Shown: piece by piece, positions 23,028-49,779 of the stretch | Numbering within the stretch: position 1 is the stretch's first letter | How the letters are laid out: each line of letters begins with the position of its first letter | Assembly: GCA_965216755.1 (NCBI GenBank) | Contig: CBDCGL010000011.1 | Coordinates: 3,317,536 to 3,381,535 of the forward strand | Length of the DNA: 64,000 bases | Reading direction: 5' to 3' | DNA from: Alphaproteobacteria bacterium | Lineage (GTDB): Bacteria; Pseudomonadota; Alphaproteobacteria; UBA7887 | Notes under the pieces: model-generated | Told to the model about the DNA's origin: nothing | Database searches by the model: none | Seen by the model: the letters and a program-made list of their open reading frames with translations, nothing else | Made by a program: the position numbers and the translations under genes

Positions 23028-23099
23028 CGCATTGCCGCGCCCCGGCGCGGCAGGGTTTGCCTCAGACGCTCTAACCTGGTGAAGCCTTTCACCCGGAAT

Positions 23100-23111: not shown

Positions 23112-23132
23112 CCCCGCGGCCGTCAATTGTTC

Positions 23133-26029: not shown

Positions 26030-26053
26030 ATCGTCGAGGCACCCGTAAATCGC

Positions 26054-28340: not shown

Positions 28341-29344
28341 CCGATGCGCTGATGATTAGCCAAACAAAGATTGGTGACGGTGCGCCACCCTATTTGATCG
28401 CCGAAATCGGCATCAATCACGGTGGCGACGTTGGTTTGGCGGCGCGCATGATCAAAGAGGCGCGGGCTGCTGGCGCCCAGGCCGCCAAGTTGCAAGCGTT
28501 CCGCACCGCTGCTTTGGTGGCGCGCACCAGCCCCTATTTTCAGGTGCTTGACGATGCCGCGCTCAGCAAATCGGCGTTGGCGCAACTGGTGGGAGTCGCG
28601 CGCGACGCGGGCGTTGCCATGTTCGCCTCTGTCTTCGATGAAGACAGTGCAGACACCATGGCGGATCTGGATGCGCCGGCGTTCAAGATCGCGTCCGGCG
28701 ACATCAACCATTTGCCCCTGTTGCGCCATGTCGCGGCGTTCGGACGGCCAATGATCATCTCGACCGGCGGCGCGACCATGGGTGATATCGAACGCGCGCT
28801 GTCGGCCGTGTCCCAAGGCGGCGCTGCGCCCGTGGCGTTGCTGCATTGTGTGTCGCACTATCCGACTCCGGCGGCGCAAGCCAATTTGGCTTGCTTGCCG
28901 ACCATCAAGGCGCAGTTCGGTGTCCCGGTTGGCTTTTCCGATCACACAATGGGCGAAGCGGTGGCCCTGGCGGCCGCCGCGTTGGGCGCCGACATCATCG
29001 AGAAACACTTCACCTTCGATCGCGACGCGCCGGGCCCGGACCATGCCTTGTCGTCGGATCCGGCCGGTTTGACGCGCTTGGCTGAAGGGCTGCAGACGGT
29101 TTGGCAAGCGGTCGGCCACAGTCAAAAAATGCCGGTCGAGACCACAGATCACGTCACTCAAATTCGCCGCTGTGTCACGGCGGACGTGGCCATCCCGGCA
29201 GGCACCGAGGTTCGCGCCGACATGCTGGCGGTGAAACGGCCGGGCACGGGTCTCGCGCCGGACGCCCGCGACCTGGTGGTCGGCCGCCGCGCGCGCCAAG
29301 ACATCCCGGCCGAAACCGCCATCGACTGGTCTATGATCGATTGA
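28337..29344 (+). CDS. NeuB-family nonulosonic acid synthase (N-acetylneuraminate / legionaminate / pseudaminate synthase), copy 1
   Basis: YLIAEIGINHGGDVGLAARMIKEARAAGAQAAKLQAF TIM-barrel NeuB signature and C-terminal SAF/antifreeze-like domain. Confidence 0.88.
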   Translation: MTDALMISQTKIGDGAPPYLIAEIGINHGGDVGLAARMIKEARAAGAQAAKLQAFRTAALVARTSPYFQVLDDAALSKSALAQLVGVARDAGVAMFASVFDEDSADTMADLDAPAFKIASGDINHLPLLRHVAAFGRPMIISTGGATMGDIERALSAVSQGGAAPVALLHCVSHYPTPAAQANLACLPTIKAQFGVPVGFSDHTMGEAVALAAAALGADIIEKHFTFDRDAPGPDHALSSDPAGLTRLAEGLQTVWQAVGHSQKMPVETTDHVTQIRRCVTADVAIPAGTEVRADMLAVKRPGTGLAPDARDLVVGRRARQDIPAETAIDWSMID

Positions 29345-29973
29345 TGACGACGGCGGCGGTCAGTGTCGTTGATTACGGAATTGGCAATATCGGCTCGGTG
29401 GTCAACGCGTGTCGGCGTGTTGGCGCCGCGGCGGCCGTGGCCGAAACTGGTGCGGACCTTCGCGGCCAAGCGCCGGCGGCAATCGTGCTGCCTGGCGTCG
29501 GCGCGATCAAATCAGCGCTCCAGGCGTTGCGCGCACGCGGTTTCGAATCGGCCCTGCAGCATCTTGTCCGCGAAAATGGCACACCCTTTCTGGGTATTTG
29601 TGTGGGTATGCAGATCCTGGCAGAACGTTGTCATGAGTTTGGCGTGCATCAGGGTTTCGGCTGGATCGCCGGCCAGGTCGAACGGATCGTGCCACCGTCG
29701 GACAATGTACGCGTGCCGCATGTCGGTTGGAACGACGTGGCGGTGAGGGGGGCTGATCCGGTGCTTGATGGTCTCGACGGTGCCCACTTCTATTTCGTCC
29801 ACTCTTGCGCGTTGCGTTGCAATGGGTCGGTTACCACGGCGAGCGCGGACTATGGCGGCCCGTTTGCGGCGGCGGTGCGCGACGGGGTCGTACGCGGGGT
29901 CCAGTTTCATCCGGAGAAAAGTTCGGGCGCCGGCGAACAATTGCTGGCACAGTTTTTTGCGACCTGTCATTGA
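29344..29973 (+). CDS. HisH-like class-I glutamine amidotransferase (WbuY paralog of imidazole glycerol phosphate synthase)
   Basis: VVDYGIGNIGSV ... LPGVGA ... GICVGMQ (catalytic Cys) ... HVGWN ... QFHPEKS. Real start ATG 29344 (1-nt overlap with the NeuB stop); the ORF-track start at 29101 is a shadow extension. Confidence 0.85.
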   Translation: MTTAAVSVVDYGIGNIGSVVNACRRVGAAAAVAETGADLRGQAPAAIVLPGVGAIKSALQALRARGFESALQHLVRENGTPFLGICVGMQILAERCHEFGVHQGFGWIAGQVERIVPPSDNVRVPHVGWNDVAVRGADPVLDGLDGAHFYFVHSCALRCNGSVTTASADYGGPFAAAVRDGVVRGVQFHPEKSSGAGEQLLAQFFATCH

Positions 29974-29979
29974 GAACCT

Positions 29980-30771
29980 ATGCTCAAACGACGATTGATT
30001 CCGGTGTTGCTTTTGCAGCATGGTTGGATGGTGCGCAGCGAACTGTTTCGAACCCATCAGGTGATCGGCAATCCCGTGGTGCATGTCGAACGGATGGTGC
30101 AATGGGATGTCGACGAACTGATCGTGTTGGATATCAGCGCTGGCGCCGCCACGGATTTCGGTCACAATCGCGACGACTATCGCGAACCGGGGGCGACCGA
30201 CTTGCTGGCGTTCATTCGCAAGATCGCCGCCGAATGTCGTATTCCGCTGACCTTTGGCGGTCGTATTCGGTCGCTTGACGATATGGGCCTGCGGATCCAG
30301 AACGGTGCGGACAAGGTCACCCTGAATACCGCGGCGCTCGACGACCCGGAATTAATCCGTCGGGGCGCGGAAACCTTCGGCGCCCAGGCCGTGGTGGTGA
30401 GTATCGATTATCGCCACGGCTCTGACGGCGCCGTCGTCTTTCGCGACAATGGTCGGGTCAATACCGGGCGTGCGCTCGCCGATTGGGCGCGGTCGGCCGA
30501 AGACCATGGTGCCGGCGAAATCCTGGTTAACGCCATTGACCGAGATGGGGTTGCGAACGGTTATGATTTGGAAACCATTGCCGCGATCGCAGACACAGTC
30601 CGCATTCCGGTGATCGCCTGTGGCGGTGCTGGCCATATGCGCCACTTTGCCAAATGCTTTGAAAGCACCGATGCGAGCGCGGTTGCCGCAGCCAACATTT
30701 TCCATTTTACGGAAAACGCCTATCCGCGCGCGAAAAGATATTTGCGAGGCGAACGTGACGATATCCGCTGA
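29980..30771 (+). CDS. HisF-like cyclase subunit (WbuZ paralog)
   Basis: 263 aa (beta/alpha)8 HisF/HisA family pattern (RLIPVLLLQHGWMV ... IPLTFGGRIRS ... ACGGAG). Confidence 0.85.
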   Translation: MLKRRLIPVLLLQHGWMVRSELFRTHQVIGNPVVHVERMVQWDVDELIVLDISAGAATDFGHNRDDYREPGATDLLAFIRKIAAECRIPLTFGGRIRSLDDMGLRIQNGADKVTLNTAALDDPELIRRGAETFGAQAVVVSIDYRHGSDGAVVFRDNGRVNTGRALADWARSAEDHGAGEILVNAIDRDGVANGYDLETIAAIADTVRIPVIACGGAGHMRHFAKCFESTDASAVAAANIFHFTENAYPRAKRYLRGERDDIR

Positions 30772-31930
30772 AGTAAGGGCGTCGACGGGAATAGCGGACT
30801 TGCCGCCCCTTCGCTGGTGTACGCGCTGCGTCTATCCATCCAGTTCGGCGGTTGCGCTGGTGTTTGACGATAATGGCGTGTGCAGCGGCTGCCGGGTCCA
30901 CGACCAGAAAAAGACCATCGACTGGGATGAACGGCTGGCGTGGCTTTTGGAAGAGATCGAACCCTATCGGCGCCCGTCGGGTTATGAATGTGTGATCGGC
31001 GTCTCCGGCGGCAAGGACAGCTACTATCAGGTGCATTTCGTCAAGGAAAAGCTCGGTCTCAATCCGTTGCTCGTTACATATAACGGCAACAATTATTTGG
31101 ATATCGGCTGGCAAAACCTGATGCGGATGAAGGCCGTTTTCGGCGTCGATCACATGATCATATCGCCTTCGGAAGAACTATTAATTCGCATGAATCGCTT
31201 AGCGTTTCGCATGATGGGCGACATGAATTGGCAAAACCATGCCGGAATCGCCACGGTGCCCATGCAGATGGCCGTGCGCATGGGCATTCCCCTGGTGTTT
31301 TGGGGCGAACATGGTTGGACCGATCTGGGCGGCATGCATTCGATGCATGATCTGGTCGAATATACCGCGCGCTATCGAAAGGATCAGCTGCTGCGTGGTT
31401 ACGATTGGCACGACATGATGGGCGATGAAGAGGACCCGATCGCCGCGCACGAACTCGAGTGTTTCAAATATCCGCGCGATGCCGAAATCGAGTCGGTCGG
31501 CCTGCGCGGGATATTCATTGGCAATTACGATCCCTGGGACGCCAATGCCCACGCCCAATTGGTGATGGAACGCTATGGGTGGCTACCATCGCCGGTGCCG
31601 TTTGAACGCACCTATCGGCGCATGTCGAATTTGGACGACCGCTATGAAAACGGTGCCCACGACTATTTGAAGTATATCAAGTTCGGTTATGGCCGGGCGA
31701 CCGATCACGCCTGCAAAGACATCCGCAGCGGCTATATGAGTCGCGACGAAGGCATCGCCATGGTGAAACGGTACGATCATGTGCGGTCGTCGGATTTGAC
31801 CTATTGGCTCGACTATGTCGATCGCGGCGAACAATGGTTTGACCAAATCGCCGACGGGTTTCGTAGCCCGAAGGTGTGGCGGCGGGACAGCGCCGGGCAG
31901 TGGCACAAACGAAATTTGTGGGACCAATGA
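30755..31930 (+). CDS. N-acetyl sugar amidotransferase (WbuX/PseA-like, PP-loop ATP pyrophosphatase)
   Basis: CTRCVYPSS...GVCSGC zinc-ribbon, SGGKDS PP-loop. Start assigned to GTG 30755, preceded by GAGG SD; alternative TTG 30800. Confidence 0.8.
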   Translation: MTISAEVRASTGIADLPPLRWCTRCVYPSSSAVALVFDDNGVCSGCRVHDQKKTIDWDERLAWLLEEIEPYRRPSGYECVIGVSGGKDSYYQVHFVKEKLGLNPLLVTYNGNNYLDIGWQNLMRMKAVFGVDHMIISPSEELLIRMNRLAFRMMGDMNWQNHAGIATVPMQMAVRMGIPLVFWGEHGWTDLGGMHSMHDLVEYTARYRKDQLLRGYDWHDMMGDEEDPIAAHELECFKYPRDAEIESVGLRGIFIGNYDPWDANAHAQLVMERYGWLPSPVPFERTYRRMSNLDDRYENGAHDYLKYIKFGYGRATDHACKDIRSGYMSRDEGIAMVKRYDHVRSSDLTYWLDYVDRGEQWFDQIADGFRSPKVWRRDSAGQWHKRNLWDQ

Positions 31931-32949
31931 CGGTCGCCGCCGACCGCCCGGGTTTTTCAGTCGATGATATCCGCCCCGCCGCGGTCATGGCCGATCAGCA
32001 GGCGGCCATGCAGCACGATATTGATTGGCTGGCGCAGCATCGCAACCAATTCGAAGCCGTGTCATGCCCGGCCTGTGGGCAAGCGGATGCGGTGGCGCTC
32101 TACGAAAAATATGGCATGCATCATGTGCGTTGCGGCGCATGTGTGACCCAATATGTATCGCCGCGGCCCAGCCAACCCCTGTTGGCGCGCTTTTATGCGC
32201 AGTCCGCGAACTATGCCTATTGGGCGCAGCATATCTTTCCGGCCAGCGCGGACGCCCGGCGCGTAAACCTGTTCCGCCCGCGCGCGCGGCACGCCGCGGC
32301 GCTAATGCGAGCGGCGAACGTCGATGGTGGCACATTGGTCGAAGTTGGCGCGGCATTCGGCTTGTTTTGCGACGAAGCGCGCGCGACCGGCGCCTTCGAT
32401 CGGGTGGTGGCGATTGAGCCGACACCGGACTTGGCTGCGATCTGCCGCGACCTGGGCCTGGAAACCCACCAATGCCCCTATGAAAAGGTGACCATCGACC
32501 ACGGCGCGCACATGGTTGCGGCGTTCGAAGTGATCGAGCACCTGCATACACCTGTCGATTTTCTACATTGGTGCCACGGGATATTGCGCCCCGGCGGGCT
32601 GGTGATGCTGACCTGTCCGAACAGTCGCGGTTTGGAAACCTTGGCGCTCGGCAAGGCCGCCGGCGCCGTCGACCATGAGCACCTCAATCTGTTCCATCCG
32701 GACTCATTGCGCGCCTTGGCGGCGCGCTGCGGCTTTGTTGATGTCGCCATCACGACCCCGGGCGAACTCGACGTGGAGTTGGTGGCGGCTGCGCTTGATG
32801 ACGGTGCTATCGACGAAAAAGCGTTGGGGCCGTTCATTGGCGCAGTCATGGCGGATCGCGACCCGATTGTGTTGGCCAAGCTGCAGGCGTTCGTTCGCGA
32901 CGCCGGCTACTCGTCGCACATGATGATGGTGGCGCGGCGCGTGCCATGA
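31927..32949 (+). CDS. class-I SAM-dependent methyltransferase with N-terminal Cys4 zinc ribbon
   Basis: CPACG...CGAC ribbon, then methyltransferase fold (LVEVGAAFG ... AFEVIEHL). ATG 31927 overlaps the upstream stop (ATGA). Confidence 0.7.
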   Translation: MTVAADRPGFSVDDIRPAAVMADQQAAMQHDIDWLAQHRNQFEAVSCPACGQADAVALYEKYGMHHVRCGACVTQYVSPRPSQPLLARFYAQSANYAYWAQHIFPASADARRVNLFRPRARHAAALMRAANVDGGTLVEVGAAFGLFCDEARATGAFDRVVAIEPTPDLAAICRDLGLETHQCPYEKVTIDHGAHMVAAFEVIEHLHTPVDFLHWCHGILRPGGLVMLTCPNSRGLETLALGKAAGAVDHEHLNLFHPDSLRALAARCGFVDVAITTPGELDVELVAAALDDGAIDEKALGPFIGAVMADRDPIVLAKLQAFVRDAGYSSHMMMVARRVP

Positions 32950-34148
32950 TCGCGGTTTTTCTGGGTAACAAGCTGGTCAGTTGCGACACGGTGCTGCCGA
33001 TCATGATGACGGTCAAGCGCCGCCATCCGGGCGAAGCTATCAATATCTATTGCATCGGCCGGGCGACATTCGATGTTATCCACCGCAATCAAGTGTTGTG
33101 GGATGGTATTCACAAGATTGGACGCCTCTACAATCTGGGCCGCGTGGGCCACGGCCGCGGGTCGTGGCTCGTGCACCGCGCCAAAGCATTTGCGTTTTTG
33201 TTGCGTTTGTCTTGGTTGGGGCTGATCGGCCGCGCGACATTTGTTCATTTCGGCCGCTTGAATGCCTGGCCGTTTCGCCTACTGTTTTTCAGCAATCCTC
33301 GCAACACGGTCTTGATGCAGCAGGTCTCCGCCGGGCACGGACCACTGGAAGCGGGGATCGATGCCTTGAAGCGTGCGCGCCGCGATCGCACGTCCGACCA
33401 AGCGGCGGGAAGACTGATGGGGTTTGGGCCAAACTGGCCAGCATTCGCGCAAGCCGGGGTGCCGCAAAGTCGTTGCCACGTCTTGGGCGTGCCCCACTTG
33501 GCGCCGGCGTGGCGCGACTATATCGATGGACGCGCGGCGCGGGATTTCGACGGCGCCGGCCATGGCGAGAGCGCCGAGATTTTGGCCTTCATGCTGGGTT
33601 TTTTTGGACCGCTCGATTTCTTACCGAGCGCAGACACCGTGCAACAACTGTTCGAGGAATCCCTGGATATATTGGTTGCCGCCGGGGGCGGCCGGCCGGT
33701 GTTTATCAAGCCCCATGCCATTACCGACTTGAAGATTGTCGACACCGCGCTGAAGGCACGCGCCGGTGCGCCGTTGGTGGTCAGCCATTTGCATCCCAAC
33801 GTGCTCGCGACGCGGGCGCGGCTGTGCATCGCGAATTATTACAGCGCGACACTGTATACAATGCGTGCCTTGGGTGTGCCGACGATCGAATACACGGATT
33901 ATACCGAACAGGCTTTGGTCGCGACCGATGACGGCTCGATGCGTCCGGACGCCGTGAGCCACTTTGTCCAACGGGACCGTGCGGGGCTCGATCGTCTTGT
34001 TCGCGACCTCGTGCAACGGCCGCGCAACCATATCGCGCCACGTGACTTGGACCCAAGCGCCATCGACGCATTGGCGCGTCGCCCTTATCCTCGTGGGACG
34101 GGTTCCGTTCGTGGCGCCGACCTTGAACACATGGTGACCAAGCCATGA
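32946..34148 (+). CDS. uncharacterised 400-aa protein; candidate Capsule_synth (KpsC/KpsS)-like ulosonic-acid transferase
   Basis: No confident family hit by eye. C-terminal half carries PVFIKPHAITD ... NYYSATLYTMRALGVPTIEY, a pattern also seen in 46097..47677 and 49780..51672 and reminiscent of the KpsS/KpsC HP and NST...GkPv motifs. Confidence 0.35.
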   Translation: MIAVFLGNKLVSCDTVLPIMMTVKRRHPGEAINIYCIGRATFDVIHRNQVLWDGIHKIGRLYNLGRVGHGRGSWLVHRAKAFAFLLRLSWLGLIGRATFVHFGRLNAWPFRLLFFSNPRNTVLMQQVSAGHGPLEAGIDALKRARRDRTSDQAAGRLMGFGPNWPAFAQAGVPQSRCHVLGVPHLAPAWRDYIDGRAARDFDGAGHGESAEILAFMLGFFGPLDFLPSADTVQQLFEESLDILVAAGGGRPVFIKPHAITDLKIVDTALKARAGAPLVVSHLHPNVLATRARLCIANYYSATLYTMRALGVPTIEYTDYTEQALVATDDGSMRPDAVSHFVQRDRAGLDRLVRDLVQRPRNHIAPRDLDPSAIDALARRPYPRGTGSVRGADLEHMVTKP

Positions 34149-35212
34149 GCGTACAAAGGATCGATCGATTCGAAACCATGGTGTGCCCGCCGAACATGTC
34201 GTTGCGGGGCGTCATGGGCCGGATGACTGCAACCGGGCATTTATTCCAGGTCGTGTTGGATGGCGGGGGGCGGGTTCTGGGCACGGTGACCGACGGCGAT
34301 CTGCGCCGGGCGATTCTCAACGGTGTCGGCGTCGAATCGGATATCGCGGTGTGCATGCAAAAGAATGCCGTAATCGGCAAGCTGGGCGCCCAGGATCACA
34401 ATCGACGGCTGCTAGAAAATCTTCAACAAATCAGTCCGAACGCGGCGTTGTTGCCGGTCACCGACGACGATGGTGTCCTCAATGAGATTCTTTTGTTGGC
34501 CGGCGATGTGGTCGAGGCCCCGGCGGCGCTGGTGATGGCGGGCGGCATGGGCCGCAGACTTGGCGCGCGCACGCGCAATACACCAAAACCGCTGTTGCCA
34601 GTTGGTGGCAAAGCGATTTTGGAACACATTCTTGGCCGCCTGGAGACCGCGTCGATAACCCGCATTCTGATTTCGGTGCACTATCTGGCGGAACAAATCG
34701 AAGCATTTGTCACCGCACGGAGCAATACGGCGCATGTCGATTTGGTCCGTGAAGAGCAACCGTTGGGGACGGCGGGCGCGATTGGGGAAATCGACGATGT
34801 GCCGGGCGGTGGCCTGATGGTCTTGAACGGCGATGTGCTGACACAAGTCGATTTCGACGCTCTGATCAGTTTTCATCGGCGCAGCGGCCACGACGCCACC
34901 CTTGCCGTTGCGCAGTATGAAGTGGCCGTGCCTTATGGCGTGGTCAAGCACAGCGATGACGGCTTGTTCCAGGGGATCGAGGAAAAACCGCGCATGCGCC
35001 AATTTGTCGCCGCGGGGATCTATTTGTTGTCACGCGAATTTTGTGCTTTGCCGCAAGCCGGCCAGCGTATCGACATGCCGGAATTGATCAATATGGGGCG
35101 GAGCATAGGTCTTAAAGTCGGCTTGTTTCCGATCCACGAATATTGGAAGGATGTCGGACAGGTCGCCGATTTGGAATCGGCAGAACGCGACCACAATGGT
35201 GGGCCGGCTTAA
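34145..35212 (+). CDS. CBS-domain sugar-1-phosphate nucleotidyltransferase (PtmE-like; GlcNAc-1-P guanylyltransferase-type)
   Basis: N-terminal CBS pair region followed by nucleotidyltransferase domain (LVMAGGMGRRLG ... KPLLPVGGKAILEH). The architecture matches the PtmE enzyme of the GDP-dependent legionaminic acid pathway. Confidence 0.7.
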   Translation: MSVQRIDRFETMVCPPNMSLRGVMGRMTATGHLFQVVLDGGGRVLGTVTDGDLRRAILNGVGVESDIAVCMQKNAVIGKLGAQDHNRRLLENLQQISPNAALLPVTDDDGVLNEILLLAGDVVEAPAALVMAGGMGRRLGARTRNTPKPLLPVGGKAILEHILGRLETASITRILISVHYLAEQIEAFVTARSNTAHVDLVREEQPLGTAGAIGEIDDVPGGGLMVLNGDVLTQVDFDALISFHRRSGHDATLAVAQYEVAVPYGVVKHSDDGLFQGIEEKPRMRQFVAAGIYLLSREFCALPQAGQRIDMPELINMGRSIGLKVGLFPIHEYWKDVGQVADLESAERDHNGGPA

Positions 35213-36368
35213 GGTGGAGCGGCGCTACGATATCCCTTTGAGCGTGCCGGATTTGCGCGGCCGCGAACGCGAGTATCTGACTCGTTGTGTCGACGAGAAT
35301 TGGGTGTCGACCGCCGGGCCATTCGTCGATCAGGTCGAAGATGGTTTGGCGGCCATAAGTGACCAAGACCACGCCGTGGCGACTTGTACGGGGACCGCGG
35401 CGCTGCATTTGGCGTTATTGGCGGTGGGGGTCAAGGCCGGCGACCTGGTCATCGTGCCGGATTGGACATTCGGGGCAACAGCGAACGCGGTGTATCATGC
35501 CGGGGCGACGCCGCTTTTGGTCGATGTGCAATCAACCTGTTGGACCTTGGATCCGGCGCGGGTCGAAGATGTGCTCAACACGCGCGCAGTGGCGGCGGTC
35601 ATCGCCGTTGACGCGCTCGGGCATCCGGCTGACATGGACGCGCTTGGCGCCGTGTGCCGCGACCACAATGTGCCGTTGATTGAAGATGCCGCTGGTGCCA
35701 TTGGCGCGCGCTACAAGGGGCGCCCGGCCGGCGGCTTGGCCGATGTCGGCATCTATTCGTTCAACGGCAACAAGACCATTACCGCGGGTGGCGGCGGCGC
35801 GGCGGTGACCAATCGCGACGACTATGCAACGCTTATGGCTCAACTGGCGGTGCATCGGGTCAGCGACGCCAGCCGTGCGCCCGGCGGGTTCTATCGCTAT
35901 GACGTGATCGGCTTCAACTATCGCATGACCAATATCAGCGCCGCGCTGGCGTTGGCGCAATTGGAGCGGTTGGATCAGATGTTGGCGCGCAAAAGGGCGA
36001 TTGCAGCCTGTTACGACCAGGGCCTGGCCGGACGCGACGACCTGCGGCCCATGCCGCGGGCGGCGTGGGCGGACCCGAACTGCTGGATGTATTCGGTCAT
36101 GTGCGGGTCGGCGGATGATGCGGACCGCCTGGTCCGCCATTTGGAACAGCAGCGCGTGCAGGCACGGATATTTTGGCAGGCCCTGTCCTCACAAACGGCG
36201 TACGATTCGGCGCCGCGCGACATTGGCGGGGTGGCACAAGCGATCGGTGCCCGAACGGTCGCCTTGCCATGCAGCAGCAATCTTACCGAAGATCAACAGC
36301 ACTATGTGCTCGGGTTGCTCCGCGAATGGCAGGGCAACCCGGTGGCGGAGCTGGCGCAGGCTTCATGA
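35196..36368 (+). CDS. DegT-family PLP-dependent sugar aminotransferase (LegC-like)
   Basis: IPLSVPDLRGREREYLTRCVDENWVS N-terminal DegT signature, FNGNKTITAGGGG Lys region. Start ATG 35196 (alternative GTG 35214). Confidence 0.85.
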   Translation: MVGRLKVERRYDIPLSVPDLRGREREYLTRCVDENWVSTAGPFVDQVEDGLAAISDQDHAVATCTGTAALHLALLAVGVKAGDLVIVPDWTFGATANAVYHAGATPLLVDVQSTCWTLDPARVEDVLNTRAVAAVIAVDALGHPADMDALGAVCRDHNVPLIEDAAGAIGARYKGRPAGGLADVGIYSFNGNKTITAGGGGAAVTNRDDYATLMAQLAVHRVSDASRAPGGFYRYDVIGFNYRMTNISAALALAQLERLDQMLARKRAIAACYDQGLAGRDDLRPMPRAAWADPNCWMYSVMCGSADDADRLVRHLEQQRVQARIFWQALSSQTAYDSAPRDIGGVAQAIGARTVALPCSSNLTEDQQHYVLGLLREWQGNPVAELAQAS

Positions 36369-37387
36369 CGTCGACGCCGCCAACGGTGATCGCCGAAGCC
36401 GGAGTCAATCACAATGGCGATTTGGCACGCGCCCGCGAAATGGTGGCCGCGGTCGCCGCGACTGGGGCCGACATTGTTAAGTTCCAGGCCTTCCAGGCTG
36501 ATCGCCTGGTCACCAAGACCGCCGCAACCGCTGCCTATCAACACTCCAACACCGGCTTGCGCAACCAGGTCGATATGTTGCAAGCCTTGGAATTGACTCT
36601 GTATGACTTCGCCGTCTTGGCGGATGATTGCCGTAACAACAAAATTGAATTTCTGTGCACGCCATTCGATATCGATTCTCTGAACGGCCTGATGGCGATT
36701 GGCATGGCGCGTGTCAAGGTGGCATCGGGCGAACTGACCAATTTGCCATTGTTGCGCGCGATTGGCGGCTACGGCGTGCCAGTGATCCTGTCCACCGGCA
36801 TGGCGAATGTGGATGAGGTCGCGGTGGCGCTGGCTGCCTTGCGCGACAACGGCGCCGGCCCGGTGACTTTGTTGCATTGCACGTCGCAATATCCGGCGCC
36901 GATAGACTCGCTCAATTTGCGCGCGATCGTCAGCCTGCGTGACCGGTTTGGCGTTTCGGTTGGCTATTCCGATCATAGTGTGGGGAACATGGCGGCGATC
37001 GCGGCGGTCGCGCTCGGCGCGACAGTGATCGAGAAGCACTTTACTTTGGATCGGTCGTTGCCGGGCCCGGATCACGCGGCATCGCTGTTGCCGAATGAAG
37101 TCGCTGACTTGGTAGCGGCCGTGCGTGACGCGGCGCGTGCATTGGGCAACGGCCGTAAACAACCGACAGCCGCGGAACTGGAAACCGCGCGCTTGGTGCG
37201 ACAAAGCTGGCATGCCGCGCGCAATTTGGCGAGAGGACACGTGATTGGCGATGGCGATGCGGTGCTAAAAAGACCAGACACCGGCTTAGCGCCGGCTATG
37301 TCGCCGGTCGGGCGCAGTTTGCGCGTTGATGTGATGGCAGACATGCCCCTGCGGGCCGACGATTTGGTCGAGGACGTGCGCCCATGA
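36365..37387 (+). CDS. NeuB-family nonulosonic acid synthase, copy 2 (LegI-like)
   Basis: VIAEAGVNHNGDLARAREMV ... KFQAF NeuB signature. ATG 36365 overlaps the upstream stop (ATGA); the upstream 64 codons of the ORF-track entry are a shadow extension. Confidence 0.88.
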   Translation: MTSTPPTVIAEAGVNHNGDLARAREMVAAVAATGADIVKFQAFQADRLVTKTAATAAYQHSNTGLRNQVDMLQALELTLYDFAVLADDCRNNKIEFLCTPFDIDSLNGLMAIGMARVKVASGELTNLPLLRAIGGYGVPVILSTGMANVDEVAVALAALRDNGAGPVTLLHCTSQYPAPIDSLNLRAIVSLRDRFGVSVGYSDHSVGNMAAIAAVALGATVIEKHFTLDRSLPGPDHAASLLPNEVADLVAAVRDAARALGNGRKQPTAAELETARLVRQSWHAARNLARGHVIGDGDAVLKRPDTGLAPAMSPVGRSLRVDVMADMPLRADDLVEDVRP

Positions 37388-38550
37388 CACGAGTCATGAG
37401 CGTCACGTCTGGCCGCGCCGATGTGGGAATCTTGGCGTCGGTCTGGCACGCCTTGGCCGCGCGTGACGGCGTCGATCTCGAGATTTTCGTGACCGGCATG
37501 CATTGCCGCCACGGCGCCGCGTGTGAATTGCCGTTGCCACATGGCGCGACTGTCCATGCCGGGGGCGCGGATTTGGCCGGCACTAGATCGGGCGCGGCGT
37601 CTGCCATGGCAAGGATTTTGGACGACGCGGCGCGGGCTTTCGAACGGGCGGCGCCGGATATCGTCTTGGTCGTCGGCGACCGGCTCGACATGATGCCGGC
37701 GGCCATGGCAACGCTGGCCGGCAACATCCCGCTTGCCCATGTGCATGGTGGTGAATTGACCTTGGGGGCCGTCGACGACCGGATCCGCCATGCCGTCACC
37801 AAGATGGCGCATCTGCACATGGTGTCGTGCCACAGTGCCGCCGACCGGGTCGTGCAAATGGGTGAAGAACCGTGGCGCGTGCACGTCACCGGCGCACCGG
37901 GCCTGGATACCTTGCGTGCCCAACCGTCGATGACGGCCGCTGCGGTGGCGGCGGCGCTTGGGCTGGTGAACATTGACGGTCTGCGCGTCGTCACCGTTCA
38001 CCCCGAAACCAATGCGCCGAATCCGTCGGCGCCACTTCAGGCGGTGCTCGGCGCTTTGGCGGCCCAGCCGGCGCCGACCGTGATCACCGCGCCCAACACC
38101 GACCCCGGTAGCACGGCCATGGCCGCGCCAATCGCCGCATTTGTTGCGGCACATCCGTGGGCCCAGTTTCACGACACGTTGGGCACGCGCCTTTATGCCA
38201 ATGTTTTGCGCCAGGCCAGCATGATGGTTGGCAATTCCTCGAGCGGATTGATCGAAGCACCGCTGGTCGGCTTGCCCGTCGTCAATGTGGGCGGCCGACA
38301 GGACGGACGCGAGCGCGCGCCGACGGTGATTGACTGTGCGCCAACAGCCGCGGCCGTTACGACGGCAATGACCCGTGCCGCCGCCTTGGCGCCGCCAACC
38401 GATCCGGCCAGTCCTTATGGTGATGGTCAGGCCGCCGAGCGGATTGCCGATATCCTGGCTGACTTACCATCCCGCGAATCTTTGCTGTACAAACCATTCT
38501 ATGCCACCGGCACCGATCAGGCCAATGTGGCTGTGCGGGCGCGCGCGTGA
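37384..38550 (+). CDS. hydrolysing UDP-N-acetylglucosamine 2-epimerase (NeuC/LegG family)
   Basis: 388 aa; GT-B-like epimerase pattern (HVHGGELTLGAVDD ... HLHMVS ... HVTGAPGLD). Confidence 0.82.
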   Translation: MTRVMSVTSGRADVGILASVWHALAARDGVDLEIFVTGMHCRHGAACELPLPHGATVHAGGADLAGTRSGAASAMARILDDAARAFERAAPDIVLVVGDRLDMMPAAMATLAGNIPLAHVHGGELTLGAVDDRIRHAVTKMAHLHMVSCHSAADRVVQMGEEPWRVHVTGAPGLDTLRAQPSMTAAAVAAALGLVNIDGLRVVTVHPETNAPNPSAPLQAVLGALAAQPAPTVITAPNTDPGSTAMAAPIAAFVAAHPWAQFHDTLGTRLYANVLRQASMMVGNSSSGLIEAPLVGLPVVNVGGRQDGRERAPTVIDCAPTAAAVTTAMTRAAALAPPTDPASPYGDGQAAERIADILADLPSRESLLYKPFYATGTDQANVAVRARA

Positions 38551-39926
38551 CCGGCACCGTTTATATCGTGCATGCTGTCGATGCCGAGGGCCCGCTCTAC
38601 GAATCCCTTACTGCCAAGTTCGAACGGCTGCACGACCTGTTCGGCGTGACCGATATCGCGCCAACCGCCGATAATCTTGCTCGGTTGCAGCGCCAAGAGC
38701 TTGACTTGGGCGGCCAAGAAGTGGCGGTGGCCCGGGCGCTGTCTGCCCACCGCAATCGCTACATGGAAAGTTGGGATCAGGTCGACGGCATGCTCGATCG
38801 TGTCACCACGCCCGACTTTCGCGATCGAATGATTGACAGTGACGGACAGGGCTGGGTCTTCAACTGGTTTTGTCTAGACCATGTCGACTTTGCCTACAAT
38901 CCGCGCCGGCGCGATATGGGCTACCATAATGTGTCCGATCACTATGCGGCGCGGCGTGCACAGACGCCATCGCCCGACGAATTGCATTGGCATTTCCATC
39001 CCATGTCGACCTATGGCGATGCCCATCGGTGCGCGACACACTATTTTCGCACGGACCATGTCTTTCAGATCTTGTGCCGCAAGATCATCGAACGGGGCTG
39101 GTTTCCAAGCGTCTTTCGGGCCGGTTTTCAAACCGAGCGCCCGGATAGCCATTGGTTTCTGGAGCAATGGATTCCCTTCGACATTTCGAACATGGCGCTT
39201 GATGATAATCATGAGCTCGACAATAGTATAGATTTTCGTTATGGTCGCTCGGGTGACTGGCGGCGCGCACCGGCGGATTGGTCGGTATATCACCCGAGCC
39301 ATGACGACTATCAGGTCCCGGGTCGTTGCCGGCGCTGGATCGGCCGGGCGCTGAACGTGTTGAACCGATTGGCGGATATCGACCAGCGTGAAATGGACAA
39401 GGCGTTCGCGCGCGCGGCAGATGGCGCCGACGCCCTTGTTGGTTTGGCAAGCCACGATTTTCGTGATCTTGGGCCAGAGGTCGACCATGTCCGCGCTTTG
39501 GTCGCCGCGGCCAGCACCAAACATCCGGGGGTTCGGTTTCGGTTTTGTGGTGCCCTGGACGCCTTCCAGAACGTTACCATGGCAACCGATACCGCCGCCT
39601 TGGATTTGGATGTGATTTTCCATCCGGCGGCCGATGGCGATGTCGCGCGTATCGAAGTGGTGACCCGCGCCGGCCGGGTGTTCGGTCCGCAGCCATTTCT
39701 TGCCATCGAAACACGGTCGCGGCGATTTCTGCATGACAATTTCGATTTCGCGCCGTGTGGCACGCGTTGGCACTACGCGTTTCACGGCGATACGTTGCCG
39801 ATCGAAGACGTTGCCGGTATCGGCATCGCCGCCAATGATGTCCAGGGGCGCAGCTGCGTGCGCCGGTTGGCGTTCCCGGCGGTGGCACCACTTAGTGCGG
39901 CACCGGTTCCCGTCGCCGCACCGTGA
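38547..39926 (+). CDS. hypothetical protein (459 aa), no recognisable family
   Basis: His/Trp-rich central region (HWHFHPMSTYGDAHRCATHY). Conserved position between the NeuC-like gene and the second HisF/HisH/WbuX triad. GTG start overlapping the upstream stop. Confidence 0.35.
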   Translation: MTGTVYIVHAVDAEGPLYESLTAKFERLHDLFGVTDIAPTADNLARLQRQELDLGGQEVAVARALSAHRNRYMESWDQVDGMLDRVTTPDFRDRMIDSDGQGWVFNWFCLDHVDFAYNPRRRDMGYHNVSDHYAARRAQTPSPDELHWHFHPMSTYGDAHRCATHYFRTDHVFQILCRKIIERGWFPSVFRAGFQTERPDSHWFLEQWIPFDISNMALDDNHELDNSIDFRYGRSGDWRRAPADWSVYHPSHDDYQVPGRCRRWIGRALNVLNRLADIDQREMDKAFARAADGADALVGLASHDFRDLGPEVDHVRALVAAASTKHPGVRFRFCGALDAFQNVTMATDTAALDLDVIFHPAADGDVARIEVVTRAGRVFGPQPFLAIETRSRRFLHDNFDFAPCGTRWHYAFHGDTLPIEDVAGIGIAANDVQGRSCVRRLAFPAVAPLSAAPVPVAAP

Positions 39927-40681
39927 CGCCAGCCCGAATTGTCGCGCGCCTGGACATCAAGGGCGAAAACGTCATCAAAGGCGTGCATCTGGAAGGCTTG
40001 AAACTGGTCGGCAAGCCGGGCGATCTGGCGCGCCGCTATTATGCCGAGGGCGCCGACGAACTGATCTATATGGATGTCGTCGCTTCGCTCTATGGGCGCA
40101 ACAACATATTGGCGGTGGTCGAAGAGGCCGCCCGCGATGTGTTCATCCCACTCACCGTTGGTGGTGGCCTGCGCGGCCTTGATGACATTGTTGCCGCGCT
40201 CAGAAGTGGCGCGGACAAGGTGGCGATCAATACGGCGGCGATCGCGCGACCGGCGTTTCTGGACGAGGCGGCCAAAGCATTTGGCAGCCAGTGCATCATG
40301 TTGTCGGTTGAGGCCAAACAGCGCGCTCCGGGCCGGTGGGAGGCATTGACCGACAATGGCCGCGAACGCACCGATATCGATGTTCTGGCTTGGGTGGCCG
40401 AGGCCGAGCGGCGGGGTGCGGGCGAGATCTTGCTGACCTCGGTGGATCAGGAAGGCACGCAAAAGGGATTTGATGTCGAACTGATACGGGCCGTGCGCGA
40501 GCGCGTGCGCATTCCGGTGATTGCCTGCGGGGGCGCTGGATGCGGCGATCATGTCGGCGCCATGTTGGCGGAAACCGCGTGCGACGCGGTCGGTTGCGCG
40601 TCACTGTTTCATTACGATCTGTGCGCGATCCCTGATTTGAAAAACACGCTTTCGGCCAGAGGGCAGCGCGTGCGCCGATGA
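39923..40681 (+). CDS. HisF-like cyclase subunit, copy 2
   Basis: RIVARLDIKGENVIKGVHLEGLKLVGKP ... IPLTVGGGLR ... ACGGAG; GTG start overlapping the upstream stop. Confidence 0.85.
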   Translation: MTPARIVARLDIKGENVIKGVHLEGLKLVGKPGDLARRYYAEGADELIYMDVVASLYGRNNILAVVEEAARDVFIPLTVGGGLRGLDDIVAALRSGADKVAINTAAIARPAFLDEAAKAFGSQCIMLSVEAKQRAPGRWEALTDNGRERTDIDVLAWVAEAERRGAGEILLTSVDQEGTQKGFDVELIRAVRERVRIPVIACGGAGCGDHVGAMLAETACDAVGCASLFHYDLCAIPDLKNTLSARGQRVRR

Positions 40682-41292
40682 TCGCCATTGTCGATTATGG
40701 CCGTGGCAACTTGCTCAGCATCGCCCAAGCCGTGCGCCACGTTGGCGGCACATGCGAAGTGACATCGGACAGTGATCGGCTGTGCGCGGCACGGCACGTT
40801 ATCCTGCCGGGGGTCGGTGCTTTTGGCGATGCCATGCGCGGCTTGGTGGACCGCCGGTTGGCGGCGCCCTTGCGCGACATCGTTGGCCGCGGCACGCCGC
40901 TGTTGGGTATTTGCTTAGGGATGCAAGTGTTAACCGATTCGAGCACCGAATTTGGCCGCCATGATGGTCTCGGCTTTATGTCGGGCCATGTTGAGCGGCT
41001 GCCCGAAGGCGCTATGCGCATCCCCAACGTTGGCTGGCGGCCGTTGCACTGCAACCGCGCGGACGACTTCACGGCCGGCCTGCCGGACGGGGCGATGATG
41101 TATTTCGTTCACTCCTATACCCCGGTTATGGCGAATGTCGCCGACGTCACGGCCACGATTGCGATCAATGGTCGCGACATAGCCGCGATCATCCGCAAAG
41201 AGCGTGTCATCGGCTGTCAGTTTCACCCGGAAAAAAGCGGGCCGGAGGGACTCAACCTGATCCGCAATTTCGTCAATCTCCCGGCTGATTGA
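40678..41292 (+). CDS. HisH-like glutamine amidotransferase, copy 2
   Basis: IAIVDYGRGNLLSIAQA ... LPGVGAFGDAM ... GICLGMQ ... QFHPEKSG. Confidence 0.85.
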   Translation: MIAIVDYGRGNLLSIAQAVRHVGGTCEVTSDSDRLCAARHVILPGVGAFGDAMRGLVDRRLAAPLRDIVGRGTPLLGICLGMQVLTDSSTEFGRHDGLGFMSGHVERLPEGAMRIPNVGWRPLHCNRADDFTAGLPDGAMMYFVHSYTPVMANVADVTATIAINGRDIAAIIRKERVIGCQFHPEKSGPEGLNLIRNFVNLPAD

Positions 41293-41314
41293 CGGCCGGC
41301 CTGTTAGGAAATCC

Positions 41315-42562
41315 ATGGCAAACAAAGTAACGACGACGGTTGACGACAACGGGGAAACGCTAGAGGTCAAATATGGCCTGCCGGCGGAGGTGCGGTTTTG
41401 TAAGAAATGTGTCATCTCCAATCAACGGCCGGCGTCAGCTGTCGAGTTTGCCCACCGCCGCGATTCGAAAAAGACCACCATTCGATTTGATGCCGACGGC
41501 ATTTGCGACGCCTGCCGCTATGCGGAACAGAAAGACGCCGGCATCGATTGGCAGGACCGTGAACGGGAACTGATGGCGCTGTGCGACAAATTCCGCTCGC
41601 GCAACGGGTCTTACGACTGCTTGGTCCCTGGATCGGGCGGTAAGGATTCGGTCTACGCCTCGCATATTCTCAAGGCCAAATATGGCATGACGCCGCTGAC
41701 CGTGACATGGGCGCCGCATCTTTACACCGACGTCGGCTGGCAGAATTTCCAGAACTGGTTGCATGTCGGCGGTTTTGACAACTACCTGTTTACGCCCGAC
41801 GGCCGCGTGCATCGCATATTGACTCAACTGGCGTTCCGAAATTTGCTGCATCCGTTTCAGCCGTTCATTTTTGGGCAGAAGAATTTTGCCCCCAAAATGG
41901 CCATGCGGTTTGGCTTGCCGTTGGTGTTTTACGGCGAGAACGAGGCTGAGTATGGCAATCCCATCGACGAGAATGTCAGCGCACGTCGCGATGCCGACTA
42001 TTTCGCCCGCCATGAGGGCGACAACAAAGCGCTGTTTTTTGGTGGGGTCGCCATGGAAGATTTGCCCGCGCACGGTATCGCGCGCGGCCAGATCGAGCCC
42101 TATTTGCCGGCCGATATCAGCGCCATGCGCGACGCGCAAATCGAGGTCCATTACCTTGGCTACTATCTCAAATGGACACCCCAACAGAACTACTACTATT
42201 CGGTCGAACATGCCGGCTTTCGAGCCAATGATGAACGGACGGAAGGCACCTATTCCAAATACAACAGCATCGATGACAAGACCGATCCCTATCACTATTG
42301 GACGACGTTGGTGAAGTTCGGTATCGGTCGGGCCACTTACGACGCGTCTCAGGAAATTCGCAACCACCACATTACGCGCGACGAAGGCGTCGCCTTGGTA
42401 CGGCGTTACGATCAGGAGTTTCCGCGCAAATATTTCGCCGCGTTCTTGGATTATCTGGCGATGGACGAGGCCGAGTTTTTTGCCATAGCCGATTCGTTTC
42501 GCTCGCCACATTTGTGGCGGCTGACGCCCGATGGATGGCAATTGCGCCATGTGGTGACGTGA
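41315..42562 (+). CDS. N-acetyl sugar amidotransferase (WbuX/PseA-like), copy 2
   Basis: FCKKCVISNQRP ... ICDACRY zinc ribbon, SGGKDS PP-loop. ATG 41315 with AGGAA SD. Confidence 0.82.
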   Translation: MANKVTTTVDDNGETLEVKYGLPAEVRFCKKCVISNQRPASAVEFAHRRDSKKTTIRFDADGICDACRYAEQKDAGIDWQDRERELMALCDKFRSRNGSYDCLVPGSGGKDSVYASHILKAKYGMTPLTVTWAPHLYTDVGWQNFQNWLHVGGFDNYLFTPDGRVHRILTQLAFRNLLHPFQPFIFGQKNFAPKMAMRFGLPLVFYGENEAEYGNPIDENVSARRDADYFARHEGDNKALFFGGVAMEDLPAHGIARGQIEPYLPADISAMRDAQIEVHYLGYYLKWTPQQNYYYSVEHAGFRANDERTEGTYSKYNSIDDKTDPYHYWTTLVKFGIGRATYDASQEIRNHHITRDEGVALVRRYDQEFPRKYFAAFLDYLAMDEAEFFAIADSFRSPHLWRLTPDGWQLRHVVT

Positions 42563-49766: not shown

Positions 49767-49779
49767 TCTCGTCATCGCC

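Follow-up and report, generated by a model that had tools for sequence, protein, structure and literature searches.

Conversion of a sugar acetamido group to an acetamidino group has been proposed (PMC10607449) for several systems built from the same three proteins, WbuX/WbuY/WbuZ of Escherichia coli O145, WbpG with HisH2/HisF2 and O12 LfnA of Pseudomonas aeruginosa, and AglX/Y/Z of Methanococcus maripaludis, all of which modify hexosamines or diamino-hexuronates (FucNAm, ManNAc3NAmA). In the Legionella pneumophila LPS locus, by contrast, an N-acetyl sugar amidotransferase (NASAT; ORF28, PDB 8WEX) with adjacent HisF and HisH serves the Leg5Am7Ac O-antigen; ORF28 has been described as homologous to ptmG and as turning CMP-Leg5Ac7Ac into CMP-Leg5Am7Ac, and ORF8 is an N-methyltransferase acting on the amidine (PMC3766260). 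[quoted passage not shown] The flagellin glycosylation island of Campylobacter jejuni/coli encodes two NASAT paralogs, PseA (Cj1316c) and PtmG (Cj1324), one pseudaminic and one legionaminic (Pse5Ac7Am, Leg5Am7Ac), together with HisH (Cj1315c), HisF (Cj1314c) and PtmH, with a methyltransferase yielding the N-methylacetimidoyl form. An alphaproteobacterial triad of WbuX, AglZ/HisF2 and HisH, in the order X-F-H, belongs to a Sphingomonas sp. cell-associated polysaccharide cluster, and a single transposon screen on the polysaccharide recovered all three genes; the accessible part of that paper describes a single triad and lists no nonulosonic-acid (NulO) genes (PMC11340318).

The stretch analysed here (the window) comprises 64,000 nt of an alphaproteobacterial contig. 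A preliminary description had placed two complete triads in it, with opposite inner gene order, and all six genes were found there on the + strand, triad 1 as H-F-X and triad 2 as F-H-X (Table 1). The triads belong to different biosynthetic modules, as had also been proposed, and both modules have a NeuB-family synthase, a C4 aminotransferase and a CMP-transferase of their own.

Table 1. Features of the two triads, their modules and other sugar genes of the window.
Feature	Coordinates	Strand	Basis or remark
WbpM/PglF-like dehydratase	6345-8729	-	
WecA-like initiating transferase	8309-9421	-	
LegB-like NAD-dependent 4,6-dehydratase	19991-21010	-	TIGR04180 366.2 bits (cutoff 475), best by a wide margin
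PseC-like aminotransferase, module 1	24896-26029	+	upstream of triad 1
NeuD-type acetyltransferase, module 1	26054-26650	+	upstream of triad 1
Weak PseG-like GT-B protein, module 1	26647-27639	+	upstream of triad 1
CMP-transferase, module 1	27636-28340	+	upstream of triad 1
NeuB1 synthase, module 1	28337-29344	+	upstream of triad 1
HisH1, glutaminase subunit of triad 1	29344-29973	+	TIGR01855 190.1 bits; motifs
HisF1, WbuZ-like (beta/alpha)8 barrel of triad 1, presumed ammonia channel	29980-30771	+	PF00977, TIGR03572
NASAT-1 (WbuX1), PP-loop N-acetyl sugar amidotransferase	30755-31930	+	TIGR03573 318.9 bits
SAM-dependent methyltransferase	31927-32949 (start 31876 or 31927)	+	PF13489 Methyltransf_23, E 8e-17
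Conserved unknown, predicted GT-B fold	32946-34148	+	AlphaFold2 model, pLDDT 90.6
CBS + nucleotidyltransferase, legionaminic module	34145-35212	+	PF00571, PF00483
LegC-like C4 aminotransferase	35151-36368	+	TIGR04181 LegC 342.7 bits (cutoff 420) vs PseC 241
NeuB2, LegI-like nonulosonic acid synthase	36365-37387 (ORF opens 36173; likely ATG 36365)	+	PF03102 289 bits
Hydrolysing 2-epimerase, NeuC/LegG type	37384-38550	+	TIGR03568 319.7 bits (cutoff 235.9)
Unknown 459-aa protein, directly upstream of triad 2	38547-39926	+	no family match
HisF2, HisF-like barrel of triad 2, presumed ammonia channel	39923-40681	+	PF00977 206.6 bits
HisH2, glutaminase subunit of triad 2	40678-41292	+	TIGR01855 193.7 bits; motifs
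NASAT-2 (WbuX2), closely related to the LPS amidotransferase of L. pneumophila	41315-42562	+	TIGR03573 364.7 bits
CMP-nonulosonate synthetase, legionaminic module	42559-43269 (start uncertain; ORF opens 42298)	+	PF02348
PseB, inverting UDP-GlcNAc 4,6-dehydratase	47713-48726	+	TIGR03589 513.7 bits (cutoff 407.75)

Both NASATs exceed the TIGR03573 (WbuX) cutoff of 203.2 bits, both HisH proteins exceed the TIGR01855 cutoff of 105.4 bits, and the two barrels match PF00977 over their full length (173.7 bits for HisF1). Together with the motifs, the NCBIfam and Pfam matches support the assignment of both triads as predicted WbuX/Y/Z-type acetamidino-forming systems. The PP-loop SGGKDS stands at residue 84 of NASAT-1 and 107 of NASAT-2, and the zinc-motif CxxC pairs are CTRC (22) and CSGC (43) in the former and CKKC (29) and CDAC (64) in the latter; HisH1 has GICVGMQ (residue 84), HPE (189) and PGVG (50), and HisH2 has GICLGMQ (77), HPE (183) and PGVG (44). 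Neither copy has thus lost a catalytic motif, and neither contains frameshifts or internal stops. In an alignment of 240 clade members with 8WEX, conservation reaches at least 97% in 57 columns, those of the PP-loop included. Between the triads protein identity is 31% for the NASATs, 42% for HisH and 34% for HisF, nucleotide identity is 49-53% and the longest blastn match does not exceed 101 nt, which indicates old paralogs rather than a recent or tandem duplication. The opposite H/F order, which had been put forward against tandem duplication, carries little weight, since order varies inside each NASAT clade (X-F-H in 28 and F-H-X in 13 loci of the triad 2 clade; H-F-X, X-H-F and X-MT-H-F in that of triad 1). 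That one of the triads is redundant or in decay, with no function of its own, is very improbable, given that motifs and reading frames are intact in both and that Hwanghaeella (L001) and the L011/L015 lineage of metagenome contigs keep the doubled layout, with proteins 47-82% identical. Nothing specific speaks for such decay; horizontal acquisition would be compatible with the GC values of the two NASAT genes (0.554-0.557), which are lower than the 0.618 averaged over the locus.

The HisF-like barrels bear on whether the HisH/HisF pairs encode imidazole glycerol phosphate synthase, as regular or surplus genes of histidine biosynthesis that happen to be in the cluster. WbuZ (TIGR03572) is the best NCBIfam match of HisF1 at 239.9 bits and scores 263 bits with HisF2, in both cases below the cutoff of 299.7, and the AglZ model (NF038364) likewise stays below its equivalog cutoff; in the hexosamine systems, as here, TIGR03573 applies and TIGR03572 and NF038364 (AglZ/HisF2) are the best or near-best matches. 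With HisF itself (TIGR00735, cutoff 294.55) HisF1 scores 209 bits and HisF2 280.7 bits, the latter little below the cutoff, which, like the scores of both HisH proteins above the HisH equivalog cutoff, would suit a histidine role; one comparative-genomics paper has also interpreted the Campylobacter pair Cj1314c/Cj1315c as histidine biosynthesis (PMC12102941). The cyclase acid and base of HisF are D11 and D130 (PMC11350729). HisF1, which carries a 13-residue insertion after strand beta2, has Leu at position 11 and keeps D130, whereas HisF2 keeps D11 and has Glu at 130, a change that might leave some cyclase activity. Both keep the gate residues R5/E46/K99/E167, which are invariant in the 72 HisF-like sequences surveyed; position 11 is L, Y or F in 9/9 HisF1-type sequences and position 130 is E or Q in 63/63 of the HisF2 type, so that every one of the 72 lacks one catalytic aspartate, a different one in each lineage. 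Moreover, HisF and HisH adjoin the NASAT in 41 of the 42 WbuX2-type metagenome loci (each at least 9 kb) that we surveyed, no hisA, hisB or hisI lies nearby, and the three Sphingomonas genes share one polysaccharide phenotype (PMC11340318). We therefore give a histidine-biosynthesis role hardly any credence.

For triad 2, the nearest described enzyme is that of L. pneumophila, to which NASAT-2 is 61% identical over 420 columns of 8WEX (E 4e-177), with the PP-loop, the tetracysteine motif and a legionaminic-acid context in common; the F-H-X order is also that of Legionella serogroup 6 (HisF4, HisH2, LPS biosynthesis protein). NeuB2 favours TIGR03569 (381.9 bits) over PseI (246 bits), and the best NCBIfam match of the CMP-nonulosonate synthetase is PseF at 116.5 bits, below its cutoff; L007 and L010 carry a homolog of this synthetase after their WbuX2-type triad. 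The CBS-nucleotidyltransferase presumably recalls Campylobacter PtmE in its domain architecture, and the LegB-like dehydratase is the probable first step of the module. The 459-aa protein, which had no match in Pfam or NCBIfam searches, has homologs of 60-63% identity near WbuX2-type triads in L007, L015, L016 and L027, and 4-nt overlaps join its gene to HisF2 and HisF2 to HisH2. Relatives of triad 2 lie in legionaminic-type modules in most of the 42 loci, with a NeuC-like epimerase in 34, NeuB in 32, a CMP-transferase in 30, a DegT aminotransferase in 29 and a CBS-nucleotidyltransferase in 28. Sequence and gene context together suggest a Leg5Am7Ac-type sugar as the most likely product of triad 2, which probably acts on the CMP-sugar. 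The locus differs from that of Legionella in its host, by its best database matches apparently an alphaproteobacterium, its second, unrelated-looking triad, its three NeuB-type synthases and its methyltransferase, which adjoins triad 1 instead of triad 2.

The target of triad 1 is less certain. Its genes, like those of triad 2, are closely packed; the HisH1 start codon and the NeuB1 stop codon share 1 nt, and HisF1 runs 17 nt into WbuX1. The gene order of module 1 recurs in L011. NeuB1 scores higher with the NeuB/LegI model (296 bits) than with PseI (255 bits), but both values are below cutoff, which leaves more than one stereochemistry plausible for the sugar of module 1. The only PseB in the window lies 16 kb downstream beside a third NulO module and not in module 1; it is a probable source for module 1, module 3 or both. 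NASAT-1 is 30% identical to 8WEX, the sole characterised NulO-linked structure, and its homologs of 70-82% identity are mainly alphaproteobacterial. This low identity, the breadth of the TIGR03573 subfamily, which includes hexosamine enzymes, and the WbpM/PglF-like dehydratase and WecA-like transferase in the window would accommodate a triad, likeliest triad 1, that amidinates a hexosamine or diamino-hexuronate (FucNAm, ManNAc3NAmA; cf. WbuX, LfnA, WbpG) rather than a NulO. However, the hexosamine genes are on the opposite strand, at a distance of over 20 kb, and triad 1 abuts a NeuB-family synthase; a NeuB-type synthase is also found within 10 kb of the WbuX1-type gene in all seven loci long enough to judge (L001, L002, L005, L006, L011, L012 and L013), four of which contain PseB (L002, L005, L006 and L011). 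We consider a hexosamine target unlikely, and the gene context points to a pseudaminic-type pathway as the most likely one for triad 1.

A methyltransferase homolog stands immediately 3' of the WbuX1-type gene in 5/10 related loci, which suggests an N-methylated amidine; L003, L007/L011/L015, L012 and L013 show this arrangement. By analogy with PtmH and Legionella ORF8 the enzyme here may be an amidine N-methyltransferase. The gene after it encodes a protein without a match in Pfam and NCBIfam searches, with 29 homologs that are all unnamed or hypothetical; among PDB folds its model comes closest to those of UDP-sugar 2-epimerases and GT-B transferases (TM about 0.5-0.57), and homologs are co-located with WbuX1-type genes in L001, L007/L011, L012 and L015. 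Its predicted fold makes a glycosyltransferase for the modified sugar possible.

The preliminary description had suggested that two different sugars are amidinated, for example a nonulosonic acid and a hexosamine. Gene context supports the first part, in that each triad has its own module and surroundings, and does not support the hexosamine example, since both triads sit inside nonulosonic-acid modules. Both NASATs could instead act on one nonulosonic acid and modify this one sugar twice, at N5 and N7 or at separate stages. Two NASAT paralogs flank a single HisF-HisH pair in L008 and L017, and a second paralog lies nearby in L082, which shows that paralogous NASATs are able to operate in the neighbourhood of a single pathway. 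Here, however, the two NASATs have separate HisH/HisF pairs, modules, synthases, aminotransferases and CMP-transferases, and each clade occurs alone in most loci, a second NASAT being present in only 5/42 of the WbuX2 type; double modification of one sugar is accordingly improbable. By description, the locus resembles Campylobacter in its two NASAT paralogs with pseudaminic and legionaminic contexts and in the proposed methylation. We know of no HisH/HisF pair belonging to Campylobacter ptmG itself. PMC12102941 names HisH and HisF only beside pseA, whereas here there is one pair per NASAT. The Campylobacter glycan is moreover O-linked to flagellin via Maf proteins, whereas no flagellin gene and no Maf (PF01973) match was seen in the window, and the WecA-like transferase and an ABC exporter give it the look of an LPS, capsule or other lipid-linked glycan locus.

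Taken together, these data favour, with a probability of roughly 0.7, two independent and intact acetamidino systems, each in its own NulO module of one co-oriented glycan cluster. HisH would hydrolyse glutamine, and the ammonia would pass through the HisF-like barrel, with its gate residues kept and one cyclase aspartate lost, to the NASAT, which would activate the acetamido carbonyl with ATP (giving AMP and PPi) and exchange the carbonyl oxygen for NH to yield -NH-C(=NH)CH3. We infer the channelling of ammonia via HisF into the NASAT, as well as the complex formation, substrates and stage of action. Triad 2, as close kin of the Legionella enzyme, would supply the Leg5Am7Ac-type sugar, and triad 1 would amidinate what the neighbouring NeuB1 module makes, a 5,7-diamino NulO of pseudaminic type formed via PseB and PseC, whose amidine the methyltransferase may then N-methylate. 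The sugar-amidine triad itself is well known, and its doubled layout recurs in related bacteria.

All six genes that the preliminary description had assembled into two complete amidotransferase triads were found where it had placed them, on one long + strand chain, its genes overlapping or set close together, that runs from about 23079 to at least 61980, and they represent two members of the known system of HisH, HisF and NASAT/WbuX, the PP-loop N-acetyl sugar amidotransferase. NASAT-1 (WbuX1) and NASAT-2 (WbuX2) scored 318.9 and 364.7 bits against the NCBIfam model TIGR03573 (WbuX), covering profile positions 2-343 of 344 and passing the curated cutoff of 203.2 bits; in Pfam, which holds no family for NASATs, neither gave a match even at an E value of 5. 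The glutaminases carry PF00117 and the HisF barrels PF00977, and HisH1 and HisH2 scored 190.1 and 193.7 bits against TIGR01855, both above its cutoff of 105.4.

Features of the glycan locus, in window positions; NulO, nonulosonic acid
Feature	Position	Strand	Remarks
WbpM/PglF-like membrane dehydratase, WecA/WbpL-like initiating phosphotransferase, ArnT/PMT-like (PMT_2) protein	6345-10838	-	upstream
NusG-family paralog	15637-16137	+	166 aa, PF02357; edge of polysaccharide region
PAPS-supply genes (CysQ-like, CysNC fusion, CysD) and two sulfotransferases	16256-19731; 21905-22915; 45107-46078	-; -; +	in or beside the glycan locus
LegB-like dehydratase	19991-21010	-	upstream of module 2
Radical SAM/SPASM enzyme and winged-helix (MarR-like) protein	23079-24899	+	open the long operon
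Module 1	24896-34148	+	order: PseC-like aminotransferase, NeuD-type acetyltransferase, weak PseG-like protein, CMP-transferase, NeuB1 synthase, triad 1, methyltransferase, protein without family match
HisH1	29344-29973	+	triad 1
HisF1	29980-30771	+	triad 1
NASAT-1 (WbuX1)	30755-31930	+	triad 1
400-aa protein	32946-34148	+	no family assignment
Module 2	34145-43269	+	order: CBS and nucleotidyltransferase, LegC-family aminotransferase, NeuB/LegI-like synthase, hydrolysing 2-epimerase (NeuC), protein without family match, triad 2, CMP-transferase
459-aa protein	38547-39926	+	no family match
HisF2	39923-40681	+	triad 2
HisH2	40678-41292	+	triad 2
NASAT-2 (WbuX2)	41315-42562	+	triad 2
526-aa protein	46097-47677	+	no family match
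Module 3	47713-59811	+	third NulO module
PseB	47713-48726	+	module 3
PseG-like	48678-49766	+	module 3
651-aa protein	49717-51672	+	module 3; no family match
NeuB3	51665-52702	+	module 3
ATP-grasp enzyme		+	module 3
CMP-transferase/class-III aminotransferase fusion	53769-55760	+	module 3
GNAT-like ORF		+	module 3
PIG-L/LmbE-like ORF		+	module 3
FabH-like KAS III		+	module 3
AsnB-like amidotransferase		+	module 3

NASATs are defined by the PP-loop SGGxDS and a zinc-binding tetracysteine, CxxC...[GN]xCxxC, as laid out for the Legionella pneumophila enzyme (8WEX) in the sole structural paper on the family (PMC10607449). In an alignment of 241 NASAT sequences the SGGxDS loop was at least 97% conserved, and it is present as SGGKDS at residue 84 of WbuX1 and residue 107 of WbuX2, together with the tetracysteine, C22-x2-C25 and G-V-C43-x2-C46 in WbuX1 and C29-x2-C32 and G-I-C64-x2-C67 in WbuX2. 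Both HisH1 and HisH2 contain GxCxGxQ, HPE and PGVG, which match the Cys-His-Glu triad and the oxyanion strand, the catalytic triad of HisH being C84/H178/E180 (PMC8115485). On score and motifs, both NASATs and both HisH proteins belong to their families.

The two copies have diverged widely, with protein and nucleotide identities of 31% and 51.6% between the NASATs, 42% and 53.3% between the HisH proteins and 34% and 48.8% between the HisF proteins, and blastn of triad 1 against triad 2 returned no match longer than 101 nt. Two observations had been named beforehand as speaking against the proposal that two different sugars are amidinated, namely very high nucleotide identity between them and loss of the SGGKDS loop or the HisH catalytic Cys/His in one copy. 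Neither was seen, since nucleotide identity is 49-53% and the motifs are kept in both copies, so that the proposal withstands both. The two triads are, judged by sequence, intact and anciently diverged paralogs; a recent duplication is ruled out by protein identities of 31-42% at 49-53% nucleotide identity. The GC content of the NASAT genes is 0.557 (NASAT-1) and 0.554 (NASAT-2), lower than the 0.618 of the surrounding gene chain, and that of the adjacent HisH genes and HisF2 is about the locus mean.

For both HisF-like proteins the top three NCBIfam matches were TIGR03572 (WbuZ), NF038364 (AglZ/HisF2) and TIGR00735 (canonical HisF), all below cutoff: HisF1 scored 239.9, 210 and 209.4 bits and HisF2 263, 188.3 and 280.7 bits, against the equivalog cutoffs of 299.7 and 310 bits and the TIGR00735 cutoff of 294.55 bits, respectively. 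They are thus classed as HisF-superfamily barrels in a WbuZ/AglZ functional context that fall, by score, outside the WbuZ and AglZ equivalog models, and their context and residue pattern suggest that they work like WbuZ/AglZ. This pattern was obtained by aligning 72 NASAT-linked HisF-like sequences in the numbering of HisF-LUCA (PDB 4EVZ). R5, E46, K99 and E167, which form the ammonia gate of T. maritima HisF, are unchanged in all 72, save for a single sequence that has a gap at position 5. In the cyclase, D11 and D130 serve as catalytic acid and base (PMC11350729), and the two types have lost different members of the pair. D11 is replaced by Leu, Tyr or Phe in all nine HisF1-type sequences (Leu in HisF1 itself), in which D130 is retained and strand beta2 is followed by a 13-aa insertion, whereas the HisF2 type keeps an acid at position 11 (61 Asp, 2 Glu) and has D130 in none of 63 sequences (55 Glu, 8 Gln; Glu in HisF2 itself). 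The pattern fits barrels that were retained to partner a glutaminase and conduct ammonia rather than to act as cyclases, and it also argues against reading these genes as spare histidine genes. HisF and HisH adjoin the NASAT gene in the window, in 41 of 42 WbuX2-type loci and in every WbuX1-type locus of sufficient length, and in the compared loci the HisF and HisH beside a NASAT invariably belong to the clade specific to that NASAT clade; a housekeeping HisHF is ruled out by this strict linkage and by the missing catalytic aspartates.

Triad 2 lies within a set of legionaminic-type genes, module 2, whose CBS and nucleotidyltransferase protein presumably resembles Campylobacter PtmE in its domain architecture. 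The NeuC-type epimerase scored above its cutoff (319.7 bits), and the best matches of the LegC-family, LegB-like and NeuB/LegI-like proteins stayed below theirs (342.7 against 420, 366.2 against 475 and 381.9 against 399.65 bits, respectively); no dedicated LegH acetyltransferase could be assigned for the putative legionaminic pathway of this module. NASAT-2 is 61% identical (E 4e-177) to the L. pneumophila NASAT, the reference sequence of which was rebuilt from a PDB alignment; the Legionella gene, ORF28, a ptmG homolog, is reported to convert CMP-Leg5Ac7Ac to CMP-Leg5Am7Ac (PMC3766260). A metagenome scan yielded 80 loci with NASAT-2 relatives of 56-76% identity, and in the 42 of at least 9 kb that were used for counts we found a NeuC-like epimerase in 34, a NeuB-family synthase in 32, a CMP-transferase in 30 and a CBS-nucleotidyltransferase in 28. 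The genes of module 2, the identity to the Legionella enzyme and the context in these 42 loci therefore argue, with good confidence, for triad 2 as a legionaminic-acid amidotransferase set. The 459-aa protein of the window, which had no Pfam or NCBIfam match at permissive thresholds, has homologs of 60-63% identity near triad-2-type genes in four related loci (L007, L015, L016 and L027).

In module 1, which surrounds triad 1, the PseC-like aminotransferase scored 344.7 bits against a cutoff of 423.5, the PseG-like protein gave a weak N-terminal match of 53 bits, and the acetyltransferase is of NeuD rather than PseH (GNAT) type. NeuB1 stayed below cutoff for both PseI (254.6 bits) and NeuB/LegI (295.8 bits), being slightly better on the latter. 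Homologs of NASAT-1 are 70-82% identical and come mainly from Alphaproteobacteria; its identity to 8WEX is only 30%. A NeuB-type synthase lies less than 10 kb from the NASAT-1-type gene in every related locus that could be judged (L001, L002, L005, L006, L011, L012 and L013), and a PseB homolog occurs in L002, L005, L006 and L011. The sole PseB of the window, which scored above cutoff, adjoins the third NulO module. On this evidence the product of module 1 is probably, stereochemistry aside, a PseB/PseC-derived sugar of pseudaminic type. A Methyltransf_23 gene (31927-32949 in the window) directly follows the NASAT-1-type gene in 5 of 10 loci (the window, L003, the L007/L011/L015 lineage, L012 and L013). 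PtmH and Legionella ORF8 offer an analogy (PMC3766260), on which the enzyme may N-methylate the amidine. The 400-aa protein of the window is conserved downstream of NASAT-1-type genes; its 29 homologs found are all unnamed or "hypothetical". Its AlphaFold2 model (pLDDT 90.6) has a GT-B fold that comes closest to UDP-sugar 2-epimerases, with polysialyltransferase and TagF further off. The protein may be the transferase for the amidinated sugar.

Gene context thus supports the proposal that the two triads would act on two different sugars, but the hexosamine offered as an example for one of them found no support, being at most an unlikely reading for triad 1. The opposite internal order of the triads is as first described, H-F-X in triad 1 and F-H-X in triad 2 (X, NASAT gene), but it is ruled out as a meaningful signal: order is labile within each clade, the NASAT-2 clade having X-F-H in 28 loci and F-H-X in 13, so that the inversion carries little information.

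Nor is the doubled layout unique, since it recurs in Hwanghaeella and in metagenome contigs. The fetched stretch of Hwanghaeella sp. 1Z406 (L001) has a CMP-transferase, NeuB1, X1-H1-F1, the unassigned protein of the window and legionaminic-type genes, and ends in HisF2. A 486-kb metagenome contig (L011/L007) has H1-F1-X1, the methyltransferase and the unassigned protein and, further along, F2-H2-X2, a CMP-transferase and an ABC transporter, which is the order of the window; L015 is probably of the same lineage, its numbers being near-identical. In L034 and L048 a NASAT-2-type triad stands beside a third, very distant triad, whose NASAT shares about 24% identity with NASAT-1. L008 (at 7417-11260 of that locus) and L017 each have one HisF-HisH pair with a NASAT on either side, and in L082 a second paralog lies near the pair; these second NASATs are 42-48% identical to NASAT-2. 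At least two NASATs were present in 5 of the 42 metagenome loci, L008 coming from a separate look-up. A precedent is the glycosylation island of Campylobacter, which encodes both PseA, with HisH (Cj1315c) and HisF (Cj1314c) alongside, and a second NASAT paralog, PtmG (PMC3766260, PMC12102941).

In the mechanism that we propose, the Cys-His-Glu site of HisH would hydrolyse glutamine and the ammonia would pass through the HisF-like barrel. Such an ammonia tunnel was reportedly proposed by Jones et al. in 2012 for AglXYZ. The NASAT would use ATP to activate the acetamido carbonyl, the PP-loop pointing to release of AMP and PPi as proposed in PMC10607449, and attack by ammonia would give the amidine, so that the sugar N-acetyl group would be converted to acetamidino in an ATP-dependent manner. 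The literature summarised in PMC3766260 places amidination at the CMP-sugar stage. A Sphingomonas transposon screen hit WbuX, AglZ/HisF2 and HisH, all in one polysaccharide cluster (PMC11340318), and lends genetic support to all three proteins serving one pathway.

The third NulO module carries unusual tailoring genes, and Legionella serogroup 6 has a similar neighbouring set (PseG, class-III aminotransferase and cytidylyltransferase). An apparent gene-free gap of 1.2 kb within it (55760-57022) is occupied by two ordinary ORFs, the GNAT-like and the PIG-L-like ones. The 526-aa and 651-aa proteins had no Pfam or NCBIfam match, permissive thresholds included; a homolog of the former occurs in L001. 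The PAPS-supply genes and sulfotransferases suggest a sulfated polysaccharide, and APS kinase and ATP sulfurylase genes are also found in the syntenic L007. At the edge of the region, the NusG paralog may serve the very long + strand chain as an operon-specific antiterminator of the RfaH or LoaP kind. A radical SAM/SPASM gene, like the one that opens the long operon, also lies between the two triads of L011. The genes furthest upstream point to glycan assembly on a lipid carrier rather than to flagellin glycosylation.

Taken together, the locus is a complex glycan cluster with three NulO modules; it does not add a system of a new kind. A tentative joint reading, to which we give a probability of roughly 0.3, is that each NulO pathway co-evolved with its own HisH/HisF pair in a specific three-protein ammonia-tunnelling complex. 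The HisF lineages would have lost cyclase activity by different routes, D11 to a hydrophobic residue with the 13-aa insertion versus D130 to Glu or Gln, in two separate recruitments of imidazole-glycerol-phosphate synthase, and the glycan would contain two differently amidinated NulOs, one of them N-methylated, a third NulO and sulfate. Acetamidino groups place positive charge on acidic surface sugars. In Legionella, Campylobacter and Pseudomonas they shape serotype, recognition by antibodies and interactions with host or phage. To our knowledge, the enzymology of NASAT, HisH and HisF consists of one apo crystal structure, with no reconstituted reaction. Two divergent and complete sets side by side are a natural experiment that could show if a NASAT depends on a HisH/HisF pair of its own and which residues of the pocket determine the sugar. 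Together with the complementary loss of cyclase residues, the paired sets offer enzymologists a handle on the ammonia-transfer complex.
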